Source: an uncultured Candidatus Saccharibacteria bacterium
GTDB taxonomy: Bacteria; Patescibacteriota; Minisyncoccia; Phycocordibacterales; CAIRYW01
Direction of reading: 5' to 3'
NCBI GenBank assembly: GCA_964577785.1
Contig: CAZOAK010000001.1
Coordinates: 22,398 to 86,397, forward strand
Length of the DNA: 64,000 bases
Below are positions 4,266 through 56,666 of the stretch, in pieces. The translations under genes and the position numbers were made by a program. A model generated the notes under the pieces. The model was not told where the DNA came from and ran no database searches. It worked only from the letters and a program-made list of their open reading frames with translations. Within the stretch, counting starts at the first letter, position 1; every line of letters starts with the position of its first letter.

Positions 4266-4850
4266 ATGACTTATATTCTAAATCTTTTGAAAAAACACAG
4301 GTTCGCAATACTCAGCGCCATTATTATTTGTAGTCTTGTCGCAATTGTTGAACTCAGTACTGGGCGATCTCCATTAGGTCCTGATGGTAAATTCGGTTGG
4401 TGGGATGGAAATATTTGGGGTAGTGAGAATTCTCAACGAGTGGCTGATGCATATTCGTTTTCTCACATAATTCACGGAATCTTATTTTATGCTTTTCTTT
4501 GGCTTGTAGCACGGAAGCTCCCAATGAAATATCGTTTTGTCATTGCGCTTATTATGGAGGCCGGTTGGGAACTTCTAGAAAATTCTCCATTTATAATTAA
4601 TCGATATCGTGAGGCGACAATCGCACAGGGTTATATCGGAGATAGTGTTTTGAATTCTGTGTGCGATGTTCTAATGGTTGTTATAGGATTCCTTATTGCG
4701 CGATTCTATAAAGTCTGGGTAAGTATCGCGCTTATAATTATTATGGAGCTCGGTTGTCTGTTTTGGATTCGAGATAATTTAACTTTAAATGTGGTGATGC
4801 TAGTTCATCCAGTAGAATCAATCAGGGATTGGCAGTCTGAGGGACATTAA
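4266..4850 (+). CDS. DUF2585-like polytopic membrane protein
   Basis: Four to five TM helices. The 'GWELLENSPFIINRYREATIAQGYIGDS' region resembles UPF0314/DUF2585. Confidence 0.55.
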   Translation: MTYILNLLKKHRFAILSAIIICSLVAIVELSTGRSPLGPDGKFGWWDGNIWGSENSQRVADAYSFSHIIHGILFYAFLWLVARKLPMKYRFVIALIMEAGWELLENSPFIINRYREATIAQGYIGDSVLNSVCDVLMVVIGFLIARFYKVWVSIALIIIMELGCLFWIRDNLTLNVVMLVHPVESIRDWQSEGH

Positions 4851-4977
4851 ATTAAGTATTCAATTTTCAAGTTATCAATTTTCAATTCTGTAAGGGTAAC
4901 ATGATTAGTACGTCTTAAATTATGAGATATAAAATTATTACATAATTATTATTAACTACTTAACTTTTTCTAACGGG

Positions 4978-6933: not shown

Positions 6934-7152
6934 GTGATTCATTCTATAATTACTATGTCAGATTTACTATTTAATCACACTAATTTTATGATGAAATATT
7001 ATGGACATGGATTTGAGTATGGTGGAATGATGGGGTCATCAATTATTTGTTCCTTGATTTCTGCGGTTGTATTTATTGATCTCGTACTTTTGGGAATTTG
7101 GCTTTGGAAGAAAATAGAAAATGAAAAGAGTAGAAATCACAAGTCAGAATAA
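6934..7152 (+). CDS. Small membrane protein
   Basis: One TM helix 'ICSLISAVVFIDLVLLGIWLW'. A terminator follows immediately. Confidence 0.4.
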   Translation: MIHSIITMSDLLFNHTNFMMKYYGHGFEYGGMMGSSIICSLISAVVFIDLVLLGIWLWKKIENEKSRNHKSE

Positions 7153-7187
7153 AAAACAAAACCGCCTTAAGGCGGTTTTGTTTTTTG
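7153..7187 (+). terminator. Rho-independent terminator
   Basis: aaaacaaaaccgcc-ttaa-ggcggttttgtttt followed by TT. Confidence 0.75.
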
Positions 7188-18060: not shown

Positions 18061-18107
18061 AATACAGGTGGTAAGTTGGTTAGCTAGTTAGGTTGCAAGG
18101 AAAAACA

Positions 18108-18138
18108 AACAGCACCGCGGCTTTGCCGCGGTGCTGTT
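18108..18138. terminator. Palindromic terminator, family A (aacagcaccgcggc-ttt-gccgcggtgctgtt); bidirectional
   Basis: 14-bp GC-rich stem flanked by A-run and T-run. An identical 31-nt copy lies at 21768-21798. Confidence 0.8.
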
Positions 18139-18185
18139 TTTGAGTTTAAAAGCTTCTAAGCTCTAAGCTTATTCCTTTCTAAGCT

Positions 18186-20865: not shown

Positions 20866-21360
20866 CTACATCCCTTTACAATTACTCGCCTTCGCAAACC
20901 CTGCTTTCTCAGCTTCGAGAGCGCTTGCAAAAAATACTTTGTTTTTAGCCAAAATTCTTTCCGCTGAACCACACCAAGGGAGGTAGTATTTTGTTCCATT
21001 TTTGGATGCTACTACCTGCCCGCCATTGTTTGAGACTGCAGTCGATGGCAGGCGGGCCTGTCCGCCATCGGCCGAGTCAGCAGGCGACGACAGGCGGGCC
21101 TGCCCAGTGATAGTCTTATCCGAATTATCGATTTTGGTTAGTGGTACAGTATTCGAAGAGGTTTGTTTCGCGGATGTGTCTAGGGTGTTGTTTTCGAATG
21201 TTATATCACTGCTATCGCCTACCCCTTTTAATACGGAATATTTACCCAATAGGAATGAGGAGATTGCCACCGTAGCTATAATAATTGACACCCCTATCTC
21301 TTCTGGGTGTCTTATTATAAACAGCTTGATTTTGTTCAAATATCGGGTTATTATACTCAC
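20866..21360 (-). CDS. Membrane-anchored protein with a C-terminal Ada-type Zn-binding-like domain, interrupted by a GC-rich repeat insert
   Basis: N-terminal TM. C-terminus 'YYLPWCGSAERILAKNKVFFASALEAEKAGFAKASNC'. Internal 'GQARLSSPADSADGGQARLPST' is encoded by GC-rich tandem units. Confidence 0.45.
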   Translation of the reverse strand: MSIITRYLNKIKLFIIRHPEEIGVSIIIATVAISSFLLGKYSVLKGVGDSSDITFENNTLDTSAKQTSSNTVPLTKIDNSDKTITGQARLSSPADSADGGQARLPSTAVSNNGGQVVASKNGTKYYLPWCGSAERILAKNKVFFASALEAEKAGFAKASNCKGM

Positions 21361-21725: not shown

Positions 21726-21767
21726 CAGGAAAGAAGCTTAGGGGCTTAGAAGGAAAACAAAATAAAA

Positions 21768-21798
21768 ACAGCACCGCGGCTTTGCCGCGGTGCTGTTT
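21768..21798. terminator. Palindromic terminator, family A (identical copy)
   Basis: Identical 31-nt sequence to 18108-18138. Confidence 0.8.
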
Positions 21799-21801
21799 TT
21801 G

Positions 21802-21839
21802 ATTGAATACTTGAAAATTGAGACTTGAATACTTCAATT
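21802..21839. repeat. Solo copy of the 33-nt element attgaatacttgaaaattg-N-gacttgaatactt
   Basis: Same element as the inverted pair flanking the four-helix-bundle gene (26777-26805, 27181-27213). Confidence 0.7.
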
Positions 21840-22281
21840 AAATTGCTTCAACAGTCAATTTAATAACTGCTTTCTTATCCCCCACCCTAACCACAAGATC
21901 ATGTGGTCCTGTTTCTTTGATATGTTTATCTAGTACAAGAAAATCAGGATGGATATCTGCGCCAATAGATTTTTTGATTGCTTCAATAATCTCGTTCGCA
22001 TGGAGTTGTGCGAACAGGTGACCTTTACTATTAGCTTTGGCTTTTATAACAACCTCTTTCTCGTTAATTTGAGCTAGATTTTTGATCAACAAATCTTCTT
22101 GTATTTTCTTTTCAGCAAGCATTATTGTTTTGAGGCTCTCAATCTTTTTTATCTCAGAATCTGTTGCAATTTTTGCAGATCCTTGCGGTATTAGATGGTT
22201 TAGAGCAAACCCATCAGCCACATTTTTGATATCAAATTTTCTTCCAATTTTCGCAACGTCTTTAAGTAGTATTACTTTCAT
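21838..22281 (-). CDS. rplI: 50S ribosomal protein L9
   Basis: 'MKVILLKDVAKIGRKFDIKNVADGFALNHLIP'. Confidence 0.85.
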   Translation of the reverse strand: MKVILLKDVAKIGRKFDIKNVADGFALNHLIPQGSAKIATDSEIKKIESLKTIMLAEKKIQEDLLIKNLAQINEKEVVIKAKANSKGHLFAQLHANEIIEAIKKSIGADIHPDFLVLDKHIKETGPHDLVVRVGDKKAVIKLTVEAI

Positions 22282-22292
22282 TTCGATTATAT

Positions 22293-23516
22293 TTAATTTT
22301 TCTTTGCTAATTCTAACGCTTTGTCTAACTGAGGATCTTTTTTTGCAGCAATATCCTCTGGTGTTAACTCAACGATGTGATCCGGTACAATCCCGTTATG
22401 AGATATTGAAGTTCCTTTCGGTGTTAGCCATCTTGCGATTGTAACCTTTAACATTGAATCGTCTGTAAGTGGTATTAATTCTTGTACAGATCCTTTACCG
22501 TAAGTTTTTGTTCCAACAAGGACTGCTTTGTCATAATCCCTCAAGGCACCAGCAAATATTTCCGATGCAGATGCAGAATTTTCATTTACCAACATCACTA
22601 TTTTTACATTGTTGTTAAATAGGTTGTATCCTTTACTTCTATATGATTTAGGATCCTCTTTTTTACCAAAATCTTCAGTCACAATTACTTTACCTGTTCC
22701 TAAAAACCAACTTGATATATCAACAGCTGCTTCTAGGTATCCTCCTGTATTATTTCGGAGGTCTATTATTAGTTTTGAGTCTTTGTTATCAACGAATTCT
22801 CTGAGTGCAGATCTAAATAGTTCAGGAGAATTAGATGTGAAGCTTGTAAGCTTGATGAGGAAAACACCATCCTCTAATCTCTCTGTCTCAATAACTGGTA
22901 CAGTCACGGAGTCTCTCTTTATGGCCATCTCAACTTTAGACTTACTACTTCCTCTAACAATAACTAAATTTACTATTGTCCCCTTTTTTCCTCTAATTAG
23001 AGACACGGCCTCATCAATATCAATTCCTGACATATTTTTTCCATTAACCTCTGTTATGATATCTCCCTCTGTAACACCATTTTTTTCTGCTGGGGAATTT
23101 TTAATTACCGAAGTTACTGTTAAAACACCTGTTTTCATTGAAAGTACTGCTCCAATTCCATCCACACTACCTGATAGGTCGGTGTTGAAGCTTTTTGTTT
23201 CCTCTGGTGGAAGATATGTTGTGTATGGATCACCCAATGACTCAGCCAATCCCTTAATTGCTCCATAGATTTTATCTTGCTCGCTAGTTGTTGTAGCCGT
23301 ATCAATGTATCTATCTTCTAGTATGTCCCACGCTTTCCAAAAGGCTGACATGTCGATACTATTTCGGTCACTTGTTAAATTATTTGTATAGGTACTTGCA
23401 ATTGCTGTTTTGTTTGCGTCAACATATAGTCCAGCAAAAAAAGAAACTGTTACTAAAAAAGTGGTTCCTACTATAATTCCAGCTCTTTTCCCCAAGTTTT
23501 TTATTGTTTGATTCAT
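22293..23516 (-). CDS. ctpA: S41 carboxyl-terminal processing protease with a PDZ domain
   Basis: N-terminal TM, a PDZ ('GDIITEVNGKNMSGIDIDEAVSLIRGKKGT') and the S41 catalytic region 'LVNENSASASEIFAGALRD'. Confidence 0.85.
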   Translation of the reverse strand: MNQTIKNLGKRAGIIVGTTFLVTVSFFAGLYVDANKTAIASTYTNNLTSDRNSIDMSAFWKAWDILEDRYIDTATTTSEQDKIYGAIKGLAESLGDPYTTYLPPEETKSFNTDLSGSVDGIGAVLSMKTGVLTVTSVIKNSPAEKNGVTEGDIITEVNGKNMSGIDIDEAVSLIRGKKGTIVNLVIVRGSSKSKVEMAIKRDSVTVPVIETERLEDGVFLIKLTSFTSNSPELFRSALREFVDNKDSKLIIDLRNNTGGYLEAAVDISSWFLGTGKVIVTEDFGKKEDPKSYRSKGYNLFNNNVKIVMLVNENSASASEIFAGALRDYDKAVLVGTKTYGKGSVQELIPLTDDSMLKVTIARWLTPKGTSISHNGIVPDHIVELTPEDIAAKKDPQLDKALELAKKN

Positions 23517-23596
23517 TAGGCAATTATGTCAAAAAAAACGTGCCTGTGCAACTTATTCAAATAATAGTATAATTCTCTTTATCTACAGAAACTTGT

Positions 23597-25072
23597 ATGA
23601 CAATACATCTATACAACACATTAGGTAAAACTAAGCAAGAATTCAAACCGATAAACGAATCTGAGGTTCGTTTGTATTCTTGTGGACCGACTGTCTATTA
23701 TGATGCTCATATTGGCAATTTACGCGCTTATGTGTTTGTTGATATATTGAAAAGAACTCTCAAATACAATGGGTACAAAGTTAAGCATATTATGAATGTG
23801 ACAGATATTGGGCACCTGACGAGTGATGCAGATGATGGTGAGGATAAAATGGTCAAAGCACTCAAACGAGAAGGTAAAGAAATGACTTTAGAAAATATGC
23901 GTGGAGTTGCTGACTTCTATTTTGAAAAATTTAAAGTAGATCTAGAAAAACTAAATATAGAATTCCCAGATAAATTCCCTTTTGCAAGTGATCATATTAA
24001 AGAAAGTGCTGGCATGATTTCTGTTTTAATTCAGAAGGGATTTGCTTACCAAACTAGTGATGGAATATATTTTGATACTTCAAAAGACGAGAATTATGGC
24101 AAACTTGGTGGAATTTCAAGCGACAATGACCACTCTCGAATCGAACAGAATACTGAAAAGAAAGATTACAGAGATTTTGCGTTGTGGAAATTCACCCGCC
24201 TGTCACCCGCCCGACATGCCTCAGACGGCAAGTCTTTGGCGGACGGGTCGCCTGCAGGCTCAGTCAATGGCGGACAGGGTGACGAAAGTGGGCTTGGATT
24301 TGATGCTTCGTTCGGTAAAGGCTTTCCTGGATGGCATATAGAGTGTTCAGCAATGAGTGAAAAATATCTCGGTGTGCCTTTTGATATTCATACAGGAGGG
24401 ATTGATCATATACCCGTTCATCATAATAATGAGATTGCCCAGACAGAGTGTTCCACAGGTAAAACTATGGCGAATTTTTGGATGCATAATGCTCATGTGA
24501 CCATAGGTACGGACAAAATGGCAAAATCCGGCGAAAATTTTATAACTTTAAAAACTCTAGGTGAAAACGGGATCCATTCTCTCGCCTATCGTTACTGGCT
24601 TTTGACTTCTAGATATTCCACGAGAGTGGACTATTCATTAGAAGCGATCAAAGCTTCTCAGACTGCATATGAAAAATTACAATCATATTTTAATACTTTA
24701 GAAAATAATGGTAGTCAGACTACCGTAGATAAAGGGTACGGCGATAGATTTGTTGAAGCAATAAATGATGATTTGGATACCCCAAAAGCTTTGGCTCTGG
24801 TTTGGGAATTGGTGAAGGATTCTAATATAGGTGATGCTGAGAAAAGAGCAATCTTGCTAGATTTTGATAAAGTTTTAGGACTCATGTTTGGGTCAGTGGT
24901 TAAAGAAGAAATAGTGGTTCCAGAAGATGTAAAGAGGCTCCTAGAGGTGCGTTTAAAGGCGCGCAGTGAAAAGAATTGGGCGGAATCAGACAGAATTCGA
25001 GATCAAATAAAATCTCTTGGATTTGAGGTAAAGGACGTCGGAGACATTCAAGAGTTGACAAAATCAATATAA
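23597..25072 (+). CDS. cysS: Cysteinyl-tRNA synthetase carrying an in-frame GC-rich insert of about 25 aa
   Basis: 'HIGNLRAYVFVD' (HIGH), 'KMAKSGENF' (KMSKS), the 'GWHIECSAM' zinc site, and a C-terminal DALR region. The insert 24190-24285 encodes 'SPARHASDGKSLADGSPAGSVNGGQGDESG' between FALWK and GWHIECS. Confidence 0.9.
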   Translation: MTIHLYNTLGKTKQEFKPINESEVRLYSCGPTVYYDAHIGNLRAYVFVDILKRTLKYNGYKVKHIMNVTDIGHLTSDADDGEDKMVKALKREGKEMTLENMRGVADFYFEKFKVDLEKLNIEFPDKFPFASDHIKESAGMISVLIQKGFAYQTSDGIYFDTSKDENYGKLGGISSDNDHSRIEQNTEKKDYRDFALWKFTRLSPARHASDGKSLADGSPAGSVNGGQGDESGLGFDASFGKGFPGWHIECSAMSEKYLGVPFDIHTGGIDHIPVHHNNEIAQTECSTGKTMANFWMHNAHVTIGTDKMAKSGENFITLKTLGENGIHSLAYRYWLLTSRYSTRVDYSLEAIKASQTAYEKLQSYFNTLENNGSQTTVDKGYGDRFVEAINDDLDTPKALALVWELVKDSNIGDAEKRAILLDFDKVLGLMFGSVVKEEIVVPEDVKRLLEVRLKARSEKNWAESDRIRDQIKSLGFEVKDVGDIQELTKSI

Positions 25073-26758: not shown

Positions 26759-26776
26759 ATGCGCTTCGCTTAATTA

Positions 26777-26805
26777 TTCAAGTTTCAATTTTCAAGTATT
26801 CAATA
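26777..26805. repeat. 33-nt element, left copy, in inverse orientation
   Basis: Its reverse complement reads attgaatacttgaaaattgaaacttgaat. Confidence 0.7.
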
Positions 26806-26813
26806 AATACGAA

Positions 26814-27173: not shown

Positions 27174-27180
27174 TTATATT

Positions 27181-27213
27181 ATTGAATACTTGAAAATTGT
27201 GACTTGAATACTT
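27181..27213. repeat. 33-nt element, right copy
   Basis: attgaatacttgaaaattgtgacttgaatactt. Confidence 0.7.
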
Positions 27214-27217
27214 GGGC

Positions 27218-28600
27218 TTAAAAAGCCCCATCATCCTTTGTAAAATCTCCAATGTTTGATTTCTCTACACTCAGGAATGTTGTACGTTCAGCATCAAAGT
27301 ATAGTTCTATACTGCCTACTGGACCATTTCTGTGTTTGTCCACATGTATCTGGGCAATATTTTGTTTGTCAGAATCCTCCCTATATTTATCTTCACGGTG
27401 AATAAACATAACAACGTCAGCATCCTGTTCGATTGATCCAGAGTCTCTAAGGTCGGAAAGCTTTGGTCGCCCTGAGCCACCTCTTTTTTCAACGTCTCGA
27501 GAAAGCTGAGATAGTGCAAGTACCGGCACTTCAAGCTCACGAGCTAGCTGTTTTAGTGAACGAGAAATTTCAGTAATCTGCTGAACAACATTATCATTAT
27601 TCTTACTACCTGTCGGTGTTATTAGTTGTAGATAATCCACAACAATCATGCCAAGTCCTTTTTCTATCTTGAGTTTTCTGGCCACTGAACGCATTTTAAG
27701 GATATTATTCCCAGGCTGGTCATCAATATAAATAGGTGCTTTAGATAGCCGTTCAATAGAACCTCGGAGCTTTTCAAAATCGTGCTCGATAGATAATTTA
27801 CCTGTTCTGAGCTTCCATGCATTAACCATCGAATCAGCAGACAACATACGATCTACAAGTTGTTGGGAACTCATTTCCAGAGAAAATATTCCCACTGGAA
27901 TGTTGTGATGTACCGCCGCTTGTCGAGCAATGTCCAAAGCTAGAGCAGTCTTACCCATCGAAGGACGCGCTGCTAGAATTATTAGATCAGCCTTTTGAAA
28001 ACCAGAAAGCATATCGTCGAGTGCCTTGAATCCTGTTGGCACTCCACGAAGTTCATCCGTGGATTGATGAAGTCTTTCAAGTCTCTCCCATGCTTCATCC
28101 AGAGTTCCACTAAGTGGTATGAATTTTGCAATGTTAGATGAATTGCTAATATCAAAAATTTGTTTTTCTGCCCTGTCTAAAAGATCATCTGTATTTCCAC
28201 CTTCATCATAACCAAGCTCACTAATATCCTCCGCAGCAGAAATGAGACGGCGATGTGTATGTTTCTTTTTGACTAGCTCAGCATAGTGTCTAATGTTAGA
28301 TGCTGGAGGAATACTTTGGACAAGTTCTGCGAGATAACTTCTACCGCCAATTTTTTCTAAAATATTTTTATCAGAAAGCCTAGATGACATTGATATCATA
28401 TCTATAGGATCGCCTCTTCCGTTTAGCTCAAGCATTGTTTCAAAAATTGCTTTATGTTTATCAGCATAAAACGTTTCTGGAGTTAGAATATCTGTCACCT
28501 CATGGATAGCATCACTGCTCCGCATGATACCACCAAGAAGTGCCATCTCACTTTCTAGATGTTGAGGAGGGACGCGCATGTTTTTTTGAACTTTTTGCAT
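27218..28600 (-). CDS. dnaB: Replicative DNA helicase DnaB
   Basis: The canonical N-terminus 'MRVPPQHLESEMALLGG' begins at the internal Met (start set to MQKVQKNMRVPPQ at 28600). Walker A 'ARPSMGKT', plus 'HREDKY' and 'QLSR' motifs. Confidence 0.85.
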   Translation of the reverse strand: MQKVQKNMRVPPQHLESEMALLGGIMRSSDAIHEVTDILTPETFYADKHKAIFETMLELNGRGDPIDMISMSSRLSDKNILEKIGGRSYLAELVQSIPPASNIRHYAELVKKKHTHRRLISAAEDISELGYDEGGNTDDLLDRAEKQIFDISNSSNIAKFIPLSGTLDEAWERLERLHQSTDELRGVPTGFKALDDMLSGFQKADLIILAARPSMGKTALALDIARQAAVHHNIPVGIFSLEMSSQQLVDRMLSADSMVNAWKLRTGKLSIEHDFEKLRGSIERLSKAPIYIDDQPGNNILKMRSVARKLKIEKGLGMIVVDYLQLITPTGSKNNDNVVQQITEISRSLKQLARELEVPVLALSQLSRDVEKRGGSGRPKLSDLRDSGSIEQDADVVMFIHREDKYREDSDKQNIAQIHVDKHRNGPVGSIELYFDAERTTFLSVEKSNIGDFTKDDGAF

Positions 28601-28802
28601 AGGTCTAATTTTAGCACATCGACAAAATATGGAAGTATTGAAAGTCTCACAAACTGTGGGAGAAATGGGGACAACTGGTACTCCAGATTGCACACTTTGT
28701 GAAAACACGAAAATTTCTGGCTCAAAATTTTCTCCGTACGTCGCCGTCGCTCCTCTCGAGGTTTTCAAAAGTATGTAATCTTCCGTTTGAAGGTTTAATA
28801 CA

Positions 28803-28833
28803 AACAGCACCGTGGCAAAGTCACGGTGCTGTT
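28803..28833. terminator. Terminator-like hairpin, family A variant (aacagcaccgtg-gcaaagt-cacggtgctgtt)
   Basis: 12-bp stem. Confidence 0.5.
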
Positions 28834-28913
28834 TGTAATCATAGAGCTCAGAAAGTTTATTAAAAAACACCACACTTCTTGAGGAAATGGGTGCTTGAGA
28901 TTTTGATCTGTGT

Positions 28914-29369: not shown

Positions 29370-29533
29370 CTGAGTAAATAGACCAAAATGTTAACGAACA
29401 GTACACCAATCGCGGTGGACTTTGCCGTCAGCACCCTGGATTTGGTTTGAATTACAGCAATACTACATAACAGGTTGTAAGTTAGCAAGCTGGTCAGCCT
29501 GCCTGTCGGCAGACAGGGTTGTGGAAAAACAAA

Positions 29534-29563
29534 ATAATACAGCACCTTTGGGTGCTGTATTAT
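29534..29563. terminator. Terminator, family A variant (ataatacagcacc-tttg-ggtgctgtattat), after rplU
   Basis: 13-bp stem, T-rich on the minus strand. Confidence 0.65.
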
Positions 29564-48870: not shown

Positions 48871-48900
48871 CATTTACCCATTCGTACGAATGGGTAAATG
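48871..48900. repeat. Palindromic repeat element, family C (second copy)
   Basis: catttacccattcg-ta-cgaatgggtaaatg. One substitution compared with 672-701. Confidence 0.7.
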
Positions 48901-48946
48901 CCCTAGTTCATAAAAGGCCATCAGTAGATGATACCCGTGAGCGGTA

Positions 48947-54634: not shown

Positions 54635-54718
54635 CAATTAATCAATATCGATGATAGGAACTACTTGACCCTAATTGGAAATTGATAATTGAATACTTCT
54701 GCTTAAGTGCTTAAAAAC

Positions 54719-55096
54719 TTAAGCAGTTTTTCTCCTATGTATCATTACTCTATTACCATCCGGATCTTCAATTGTCACCATTTGGCATGATGGAAAATCC
54801 ATTATTTCACCAACAAATATAATATTATTTTCTTTAAGAATTTTGACGGCTTCTTCAAAATCAATAACCTCTAGTGCTACCACGCCTCCTTCTCTGCCTG
54901 GCATAAAATTAGTAGCTCCTTTACCTATTGCAAGTGTATGAGGGCCAATTTCATATTCAATAAATACCATTTCAGTTGTATCATCACCAAAAACACTTGT
55001 AGGCTTTAAACCTAAAATATCTTCATAAAAATATTTGGCTTTTGAGACATCTGTAATTGAGTAACTTACAAACGCTATTTCTTTTACCTGTATCAT
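54719..55096 (-). CDS. VOC (glyoxalase/bleomycin-resistance) family protein
   Basis: 'IAFVSYSITDVSKAKYFYEDILGLKP...MVTIEDPDGNRVMI'. Confidence 0.8.
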   Translation of the reverse strand: MIQVKEIAFVSYSITDVSKAKYFYEDILGLKPTSVFGDDTTEMVFIEYEIGPHTLAIGKGATNFMPGREGGVVALEVIDFEEAVKILKENNIIFVGEIMDFPSCQMVTIEDPDGNRVMIHRRKTA

Positions 55097-55966: not shown

Positions 55967-56455
55967 CTATGTCTTGTCAGGCGATTCGCCGTTAGGCCCT
56001 GGCTTCACGCTTGAAGCCGCAGGATTTACAGGCCTGACTAGCACGAGCTGGCCAGTGACCGTATCAACAATCAATCCGCTGAACCCTTTGGGGTGGGCAC
56101 CTTTGAGCAACACGGCCTGTTGGTCAGTGAGGCCAAATTTTGCTGGGCTCCCTGACACCAATGTGACGATCTGGGCGAGACCCTGATCAGCTTCATGCTT
56201 TGTGTCACCCTTGATGATGGCATCATTCCAAGCAACCATCAGAATGTGTGCGACATCACCCGCTGCCTGAGCTGTAGCGAGTTCTGCAGCATTCGACGTC
56301 TTAGCCTGGCGTTTTGCCTGGTTTTTCTTTGCAGTCTCGCTGATGACTTTGATATTCGGAATGGCAATGACGGCAATCCCACCAATGAGGGCGAGAACGA
56401 CGAGTAATTCCACGAGACTGAAGCCGATTTTCTTTGACAATTTAGCGTTTTTCAT
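55967..56455 (-). CDS. Type IV pilin / pseudopilin-like protein; GC-rich relative to its surroundings
   Basis: Class-III signal peptide 'KKIGFSLVELLVVLALIGGIAVIAIP'. The start is taken at MKNAKLSKK. Confidence 0.7.
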   Translation of the reverse strand: MKNAKLSKKIGFSLVELLVVLALIGGIAVIAIPNIKVISETAKKNQAKRQAKTSNAAELATAQAAGDVAHILMVAWNDAIIKGDTKHEADQGLAQIVTLVSGSPAKFGLTDQQAVLLKGAHPKGFSGLIVDTVTGQLVLVRPVNPAASSVKPGPNGESPDKT

Positions 56456-56666
56456 GGTTTGGGTATGGGTTTGGATGTTTACTTGATTGCACATGACACA
56501 CAGAATTTTATGGTCAATGCGCAGTCAAAGTTTGATATTTCAAACACTGGCTGCGCACTGCCATAACCTCTTTTAAAGAACGAAGTTTATTATTATCACA
56601 CAATTAAAACAATATCAAACAACCTATCTAGGTTAGGTTTTAGATAATTAAACATATATATTAGAA

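Follow-up and report, generated by a model that had tools for sequence, protein, structure and literature searches.

A nested, in-frame GC-rich insert in a Saccharibacteria cysteinyl-tRNA synthetase gene, probably a REP/RPE-like hairpin repeat

We analyzed a 64-kb stretch of DNA (the window) from an uncultured Candidatus Saccharibacteria bacterium, in which the cysteinyl-tRNA synthetase (CysRS) gene, cysS, carries a GC-rich, in-frame segment of 84 nt. This segment is probably no native part of CysRS but selfish hairpin DNA resembling the REP and RPE repeats, translated as a disordered loop. We propose that a 42-nt GC-rich imperfect hairpin inserted into codon Ser200 of cysS and that a second 42-nt unit, belonging to a diverged subfamily, then inserted into the first. 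Both events would have taken place after the split from the lineages of the closest relatives (loci L123 and L002) and before the split from a nearly identical strain (L143). The 84 nt would be translated as a 28-residue disordered loop rich in Gly, Ser, Pro and Ala, placed where the connective-polypeptide (CP) insertion reaches its C-terminal end, in a loop that naturally varies in length. As a unit equals 14 codons, the downstream frame is preserved, and since there is also no stop codon in the orientation and phase found in cysS, the segment would simply be translated. Genic copies of the repeat in general would persist only if they are a multiple of three in length, free of stops and encode a benign peptide.

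The in-frame insert in cysS

The cysS open reading frame (ORF) is intact, spans positions 23597-25072 of the forward strand in the ORF list and encodes 491 aa. Its identity is clear from 8000 homologs at E<=1e-30, from the Pfam domains tRNA-synt_1e and CysS_C, and from the Foldseek comparison of its predicted model, whose best matches are the CysRS structures 3SP1, 1U0B and 1LI5. Conserved alignment columns hold C29, HIGN 38-41, C250, H275, E279 and KMAKS 307-311. With the 1LI5 offset, C250, H275 and E279 correspond to C209, H234 and E238 among the E. coli zinc ligands C28/C209/H234/E238, and the product thus has the HIGH, KMSKS and zinc-ligand features of a class I CysRS. Judged from the sequence, the insert leaves these catalytic and zinc motifs untouched.

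The window is AT-rich, with a GC content of 36.3%. In contrast, 100-nt windows reach 63% GC at 24200-24299 and 64% at 21000-21099, and the two top 60-nt GC peaks of the 64 kb lie at 21001-21131 (0.77) and 24169-24306 (0.70). A gapped nucleotide alignment with the CysRS genes of loci L123, L002 and L001 sets the limits of the cysS insert at 24195-24278 (+; 84 nt, 28 codons), inside the interval 24190-24285 in which the first-pass annotation had correctly recognized a GC-rich in-frame segment. The insert interrupts a Ser codon (A|GT) and encodes T200-G228, TRLSPARHASDGKSLADGSPAGSVNGGQG. In the alignment of the four CysRS genes, the empty sites of L123, L002 and L001 read TGGAARTTYNN-TNNNGA..., and the pre-insertion sequence of the window reconstructs as TGG AAA TTC A^GT GAC GAA AGT (W-K-F-S-D-E-S), which fits the consensus WKFSDxxGLGF. 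Compared with these three empty sites, the insertion site (site A, TTCA^[84 nt]^GTGAC) shows zero duplicated flank bases.

We also asked how the insert sits in the protein. FALWK-to-GWHIEC spacing was counted in 114 of the 120 best CysRS homologs: it is 16-18 residues in 97 of the 114 and 32 in three, against 46 in the window CysRS and 60 in the protein P0058. The loop is therefore naturally variable in length, with spacers of 16 to 60 residues among homologs. Earlier figures of about 12 and about 40 residues need to be revised to 16-18 and 46, but the 28-residue excess that they implied stands. An AlphaFold2 model from a 26-sequence alignment has a mean pLDDT of 81.5, and residues 203-230 fall below 50 as coil, with no secondary structure. 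In a phmmer search of PDB sequences, the alignment covers residues 2-200 and 232-481, breaking at 200/232 and leaving the insert out. By alignment with the 1LI5 offset, the insert falls between E. coli M186 and S187, a point that we take to be the C-terminal end of the CP insertion in the E. coli structure. The end of the insert lies 22 residues ahead of the zinc ligand C250, and the description of the insert as adjoining the zinc-binding site holds in this linear sense only.

The 84 nt resolve into two units. The 5' part of an outer 42-nt unit (CCCGCCTGTCA, 24195-24205, +) and its 3' part (TCGCCTGCAGGCTCAGTCAATGGCGGACAGG, 24248-24278, +) flank a complete inner 42-nt unit of a diverged subfamily (CCCGCCCGACATGCCTCAGACGGCAAGTCTTTGGCGGACGGG, 24206-24247, +), which was recognized by a fuzzy two-end match on both strands and by its hairpin fold. 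The inner unit breaks the outer one at TGTCA^TCGCC. When rejoined, the outer unit CCCGCCTGTCA|TCGCCTGCAGGCTCAGTCAATGGCGGACAGG is identical to the unit of L002 at 39/42 positions, compared with 75% identity for the host genes. In strain L143, the sole change in the outer unit is to the L002 base, raising the identity to 40/42 (counted by hand). Because a split canonical unit encloses a complete, diverged 42-nt unit, we interpret the 84 nt as a nested insertion and not as a tandem. The first-pass annotation had called the segment copy 2 of a repeat family; the family is indeed that of the repeat at 21015-21098, but the copy is two nested units, not one. The reverse complement that it quoted, and the 12-mer and 9-mer said to be shared with the unit at 21057-21097, are correct.

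Several searches agree on this relationship. A repeat search of the window pairs 21057-21088 with 24247-24278 as arms of 32 nt that are 84% complementary, the match that takes in the 3' part of the outer unit. Within the insert, a covariance model of the family matches 24195-24247 (E=0.026) and 24249-24278 (E=0.021). For the two end motifs, the window has 9 and 5 occurrences where about 1 would be expected, and a two-ended fuzzy pattern matches only at the loci described here and never in 30 shuffles.

The 42-nt repeat family in the window and in other genomes

The other clear copies in the window are a head-to-tail pair of 42-nt units at 21015-21098. Unit U1 (21057-21098, -; read as ARLSSPADSADGGQ) and unit U2 (21015-21056, -; ARLPSTAVSNNGGQ) were found by the repeat search and score 49.0 bits (E=2.5e-11) and 49.5 bits (E=1.7e-11), respectively, with the covariance model. 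Both lie in an ORF for a membrane-anchored protein of 164 aa (20866-21360, -), and their sense and phase are those of the cysS copy (GQARLSSPADSADG GQARLPSTAVSNNG). The syntenic ortholog in L123 is 135 aa long, with precisely these 84 nt missing; the empty site there, GGGCAGG^TGGTC, has 7 nt in common with the 3' end of the element. The 164-aa protein has an N-terminal hydrophobic segment and a weakly sunset-domain-like C-terminus, with NCBIfam matches below threshold, and no Pfam match.

A third fragment, also pointed out by the first-pass annotation, exists at 29498-29517 (+) in an intergenic region. It consists of two unit ends abutting without a centre (CCTGCCTGTC|GGCAGACAGG), with one mismatch in each end motif, and lies directly upstream of a terminator-like hairpin. 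Its substitutions C3>T and G36>A preserve a base pair. However, its covariance-model score (13.7 bits, E=0.12) is borderline, and we consider this fragment a possible relic and no firm member of the family.

We then compared these sites among relatives. The closest relatives other than strains of the same organism (P0002/L123 and P0009/L002) share 78-80% amino-acid and 75% nucleotide identity with the window CysRS, and their insert site is empty. More broadly, the 84-nt cysS insert is missing from most homologs. The independent assembly GCA_020049755.1 (L143), which is 99% identical over 14.6 kb, has both inserts. The ortholog alignment that had been suggested as the test of the insertion claim thus finds the segment missing from L123 and L002 and shared only by the 99%-identical strain, the reverse of what would have refuted the claim. 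Between L143 and the window there are 2 differences in the 84 nt, both non-synonymous, and 31 in the whole 1476-nt cysS. At the protein level, 2 of the 11 amino-acid differences from the 98%-identical CysRS of this strain fall inside the 28 insert residues. The strains also differ beside cysS: the ctp-cysS gap is 98 nt in the window (23517-23614) and 594 nt, with a 102-aa ORF, in L143 (3150-3743), a strain-level indel that adjoins cysS, and the first few CysRS codons differ between the two.

Related units occur elsewhere in CysRS. The CysRS genes of P0008/L001 and P0009/L002 each contain one 42-nt unit at a second site (site B), TTYG^G of F|GKGFPGWH, with at most 1 nt of target ambiguity; the zinc-ligand cysteine of GWHIEC lies 10 residues further downstream. 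Their units lie in opposite orientations and encode ARLSSPAGEINGGQ and ACPPLAEPAGDGRR, respectively. Opposite orientations at one CysRS site indicate that the element acts at the level of DNA and rule out an origin at the protein level. The CysRS of a Curtissbacteria genome (L066) has a unit at a third site. In a different Patescibacteria lineage, the P0058 CysRS (L124, 5001-6533) carries a strongly palindromic insert of about 45 residues in the same loop as the window insert (RNAfold -60.9 kcal/mol for ~155 nt). We rejected this longer insert as a member of the 42-nt family, as its palindromic sequence differs; its presence in the same loop marks the CysRS loop as a recurrent landing site for hairpin DNA.

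Beyond these relatives, we scanned one genome per GTDB species with the pattern CCCGCCTGYC-N18-24-TGGCGGRCAGG and obtained at least 120 loci in many phyla, where a rough estimate for random sequence would give <10. Patescibacteria among the matches listed include Saccharibacteria and Nomura-, Doudna-, Curtiss-, Levyi-, Lipton-, Yanofsky-, Zambryski-, Roizman- and Nealsonbacteria; other groups among them are Desulfobacteraceae (including complete chromosomes), Bacteroidia/Flavobacteriaceae, metagenome-assembled genomes (MAGs) of Gammaproteobacteria and Actinomycetota, Neomarinimicrobiota and others. Part of the matches in high-GC genomes look like chance. The Saccharibacteria MAG CAZAJM01 has five exact matches among those listed, and the window has four units. 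A near-exact 42-mer of the window/L002 subtype is present on 12 JGI metagenome contigs, in several cases again in frame.

Units are 39-45 nt long, begin with CCCG and end with CAGG(Y). Their consensus runs from CCCGCCTGCC-A through a short covarying stem-loop to A-GGCA-AT-GGCGGGCAGG, with centres that are variable yet recognizably related (for example, ...A-NCGCC-TGAA-GGCGN-A-GGCA-AT...). The predicted fold is a three-part hairpin, made of CCCGCC/GGCGGG, TGCC/GGCA and a 4-5-bp tip, with a 2-nt bulge and a 3' CAGG tail; the tip keeps its pairing though its sequence changes, and the terminal 12 nt are complementary at 10 of 12 positions. RNAalifold on a MAFFT alignment returned the invariant outer stem only, and folding of single sequences against shuffles was used instead. 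The outer CCCGCC/GGCGGG stem is predicted in 90 of 90 full-length copies, and the inner hairpin has a mean z of -1.34 relative to shuffles, with 26% of copies below -2.

No target consensus was found in the 10 nt upstream of the units, and a pyrimidine at +1 (84 of 106 copies) is the sole target preference. In a few cases, the copy is found between tRNA genes or within the loop of a larger palindrome that resembles a terminator. We considered whether every unit lies in the loop of a larger palindrome or forms the core of a larger RNA and rejected this: flanking complementarity of >=5 bp is seen in only about 8 of 126 copies, where about 2.4 would be expected. In two MAGs (L021, 4980-6065; L025, 5568-7467), 42-nt units alternate with tRNA genes in tRNA arrays, and an ORF beside the units of L025 resembles, by eye, a LAGLIDADG endonuclease. 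Loci from Desulfobacteraceae and Desulfatiglandales (L004, L032, L112, L047 and L050) have extra TGGCGGGCAGG copies or fused variant units after the 3' end of the unit, which suggests slippage or an array architecture more complex than in Patescibacteria.

Most copies lie outside genes. Among 99 copies at loci with a GC content below 0.5, 78 are intergenic or at gene edges, 4 lie between two long ORFs and are not in frame, and 17 are inside long ORFs, in frame and stop-free. Pfam identifies the genic hosts as RNase J, a ClpB-like ATPase, UvrC, UvrB, CysRS, a histidine kinase, a thioredoxin-reductase-like protein, DNA polymerase I (PolA), NAD-ligase (LigA), IF-2, thymidylate synthase (ThyA) and dihydroorotate dehydrogenase (DHODH). 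Length is a multiple of three in 16 of the 17 intragenic copies versus 47 of the 78 intergenic ones (Fisher p=0.005), and lengths of 39, 42 or 45 nt make up 60% even among intergenic copies. In five of the six reading frames, 79-91% of copies are stop-free. Eleven of the 17 intragenic copies share a single frame, which encodes the hydrophilic peptide (A)RLPSPxxxxNGGQ (binomial p=7.6e-5). These filters of length, stops and frame on the genic copies indicate that they are translated by read-through.

Alternative explanations, mobilization and neighboring repeats

The first-pass annotation had proposed that an essential enzyme tolerates a mobile-repeat-like insertion. The discovery of units in either orientation in other CysRS genes, in unrelated genes and in intergenic regions bears this out, and selfish hairpin DNA is in our judgment the probable source of the cysS segment. 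Several points weigh against this interpretation. The 64 kb of the window hold four units and one doubtful relic, a count that applies to the window only, and hairpin z-scores for the copies in the window are weak, ranging from -0.5 to -2.1. The search pattern itself accounts for part of the conservation of the 10-nt ends across phyla, and column-wise scoring of covariation was dropped because the central stems shift register. No transposase or other mobilizing gene is linked to the element in about 1 Mb of locus DNA. Furthermore, translation of the insert is deduced from its open frame and mobility from presence/absence and distribution, that is, from sequence data, and the insert is presumed to be neutral for the enzyme.

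Another possibility is that the hairpin is a selected functional cis-element, such as a protein-binding site, an mRNA stabilizer or attenuator, or a recombination or replication signal, and that the genic copies are tolerated by-products. This would account for the recurrence of the two ends in several phyla, for a central stem that pairs despite sequence change, and for the copies in tRNA arrays or inside terminator-like palindromes. In addition, the hairpin potential of intragenic copies is no weaker, with no support for hairpin decay in coding copies (Mann-Whitney p=0.19). Nevertheless, we consider a cis-element unlikely: intergenic copies have no orientation bias relative to flanking genes and also lie between divergent genes, close relatives differ in presence or absence at orthologous sites, unrelated coding regions are hit in both orientations, and part of the end conservation is set by the search pattern. 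Moreover, no Rfam family was found at the elements, either in the window (E<=1 for 20-30 kb, gathering threshold for all 64 kb) or at nine element-bearing loci.

It is very unlikely that the insert is a selected protein module, namely a flexible linker with GGQ at its end that CysRS acquired for a function. The strong preference for the (A)RLPSPxxxxNGGQ frame and the position of the loop, near an active-site zinc ligand in sequence, would fit such a module. However, when the unit lies the other way round at the same CysRS site it encodes an unrelated peptide, ~80% of copies fall in non-coding DNA, and the insert is predicted to be disordered. Its 28 residues also hold 2 of the 11 amino-acid differences from the 98%-identical strain, and the closest relatives manage without it.

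Even less plausible is an insert that stays untranslated, either cut from the mRNA or bypassed by the ribosome like the 'byp' elements of Magnusiomyces mitochondria. A GC-rich, hairpin-forming cluster in an AT-rich genome does resemble mitochondrial GC clusters and byp, but intragenic copies are nearly always stop-free and a multiple of three in length, which neither bypass nor excision would need, and their preference for the frame of a benign peptide implies translation. Finally, ordinary loop expansion by local duplication or slippage, or an assembly chimera, with a chance likeness to the repeat, can be dismissed as scarcely credible: the CysRS loop does span 16 to 60 residues among homologs, but 32-42-nt matches link the insert to copies 3 kb away and in other genomes, no match appears in the 30 shuffles, the independent assembly carries the same insert, and related inserts occur in JGI, Logan, ENA and NCBI assemblies.

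If the segment is selfish hairpin DNA, our best guess is that it is mobilized in trans as single-stranded hairpin DNA, by analogy with REP/RAYT or IS200/IS605 systems, since the hairpin and the lack of a target-site duplication fit this mode. A phmmer search with IS200 and RAYT queries, run on 3710 ORFs from the window and the loci, had a single match, in L082 (Pfam Y1_Tnp), and this Y1 transposase is flanked by an unrelated REP. Paired copies of the 42-nt unit flank uvrA or tRNA genes, not a transposase, and no insertion sequence (IS) with the unit ends was found in the loci examined. With regard to a phage vector, six matches on viral contigs were found, none with a family-like centre. A more speculative idea, which we hold only tentatively, is that the family represents an undescribed cross-phylum class of 'gene-dwelling' hairpins, with a codon-tuned length, five stop-free frames and one benign disordered peptide, adapted to gene-dense genomes such as those of the candidate phyla radiation (CPR). 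Such a class might be moved by a non-RAYT enzyme that acts across phyla, or spread by exchange between episymbionts and hosts. If the cross-phylum spread and codon-tuned design truly mark a new mobilization system, the importance of the family would be greater.

The genomes of CPR bacteria (Patescibacteria) are deemed extremely streamlined and still host selfish repeats that hide in frame in essential genes, among them those for an aminoacyl-tRNA synthetase, Uvr proteins, Pol I, ligase and IF-2. These insertions produce disordered loops peculiar to a lineage and inflate apparent protein divergence, and they can mislead alignments, phylogenies and the domain annotation of MAG proteins. They also provide natural insertion-tolerance maps of essential enzymes, with three CysRS sites hit. 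Since its ends recur in several phyla, the family offers a handle for finding the mobilizer and for following how ultra-small bacteria and their neighbors exchange DNA.

The window contains other repeats and oddities. Another repeat family consists of a GC hairpin between A- and T-runs (AAACAGCACCGCGGCTTTGCCGCGGTGCTGTTTTT) and is located at gene ends (18101-18143, 21760-21802 and 28796-28838), with a weaker copy at 7145-7187 and a similar hairpin at ~29536-29562; its members look like shared bidirectional intrinsic terminators. An AT-rich intergenic repeat of 35-50 nt (TTGAATACTTGAAAATTGAGACTTGAATACTT) occurs in both orientations at 21799-21858, 26772-26807, 27179-27237, 4838-4886 and 54672-54722, with up to 92% identity, and may be a promoter/operator motif or another small repeat family. 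A near-perfect palindrome of 31 nt (CATTTACCCATTCGTACGAATGGGTAAATG) is present twice, at 672-702 and 48871-48901, 48 kb apart. The Rfam model Rp_sR47 (Rickettsia sRNA47) matches 22466-22607 (+) with 62.4 bits, just over its gathering score, antisense to the ORF of an S41 (Ctp) peptidase (22293-23516, -); this match probably reflects protein-coding conservation rather than a small RNA. Lastly, a pilin-like ORF (55967-56494, -; N-terminal GFSLVELLVVLALIGG) has about 60% GC in the 36% GC window and may be horizontally acquired.

Comparison with known palindromic repeats

A literature search brought up only the REP and RPE precedents and no earlier description of this sequence, or of palindromic, REP or MITE elements in CPR, which is not proof of their absence. 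The phenomenon itself is clear but has precedents in the RPEs and in the intragenic GTAG/CGTC REPs. RPEs (Ogata et al. 2000, as summarized in PMC3733652 and PMC10969869) are palindromic repeats, many of them in frame in working genes. Going by these summaries, RPEs and the 42-nt family have in common short dispersed palindromes in a small AT-rich genome, in-frame genic copies that add surface peptide segments, and the lack of a known mobilizer. The 42-nt family indeed shows the RPE-type trait of a palindromic repeat in frame in intact genes, namely cysS, the 164-aa ORF and 17 further ORFs, most of them with housekeeping domains. It differs, in a comparison by description only, in its hosts (Patescibacteria and others, from several phyla), in its sequence, and in its strongly GC-rich unit of 39-45 nt. 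RPE-1 is much longer than the 42-nt unit, and the two differ in size and GC content.

The GTAG/CGTC REPs (Di Nocera et al. 2013, PMC3733652) are imperfect palindromes of 20-40 bp that are mostly extragenic, with a minority inside ORFs, including those for UvrABC, Pol I, DNA ligase and tRNA synthetases; they are found singly, as dimers or in clusters, and the CGTC REPs have no dedicated transposase. The genic host spectrum of the 42-nt family is very similar, and its units are likewise short imperfect palindromes with a stem-loop. In contrast, they lack the terminal GTAG or CGTC tag (PMC3733652), they have a three-part stem (6+4+4-5 bp) with a 2-nt bulge and a 3' CAGG(Y) tail, and no RAYT was found nearby. 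The REP/REPIN-RAYT systems of Proteobacteria are also hairpin repeats without target-site duplication, thought to be mobilized in single-stranded form by an HUH Y1 transposase. However, REPINs are inverted pairs and usually lineage-specific, whereas the 42-nt units are predominantly singles and head-to-tail tandems, with the same ends in several phyla, and no cognate Y1 gene was identified for them in the loci examined.

The GC clusters and byp elements of yeast mitochondria are GC-rich palindromic clusters that invade AT-rich genomes, including coding regions. Both are organellar. The length of byp elements is not a multiple of three, and the ribosome skips them. The 42-nt family shares with them GC-rich palindromes in an AT-rich genome, but its length and frame statistics indicate read-through, and the 84 nt in cysS are open and in frame, with neither the frame break nor the stops of a byp or an intron. 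MITEs make target-site duplications, and none is seen at cysS site A. They derive from IS, whereas no parent IS was found for the 42-nt unit. Like the MITEs Correia and Nezha (reviewed in PMC10969869), the family would be non-autonomous, has terminal inverted repeats (10/12 here) and can extend ORFs; the size range given for MITEs is 70-300 bp (PMC3733652). Taken together, the 42-nt family is best filed as a new REP/RPE-like family outside the named ones, set apart from the RPEs by description.

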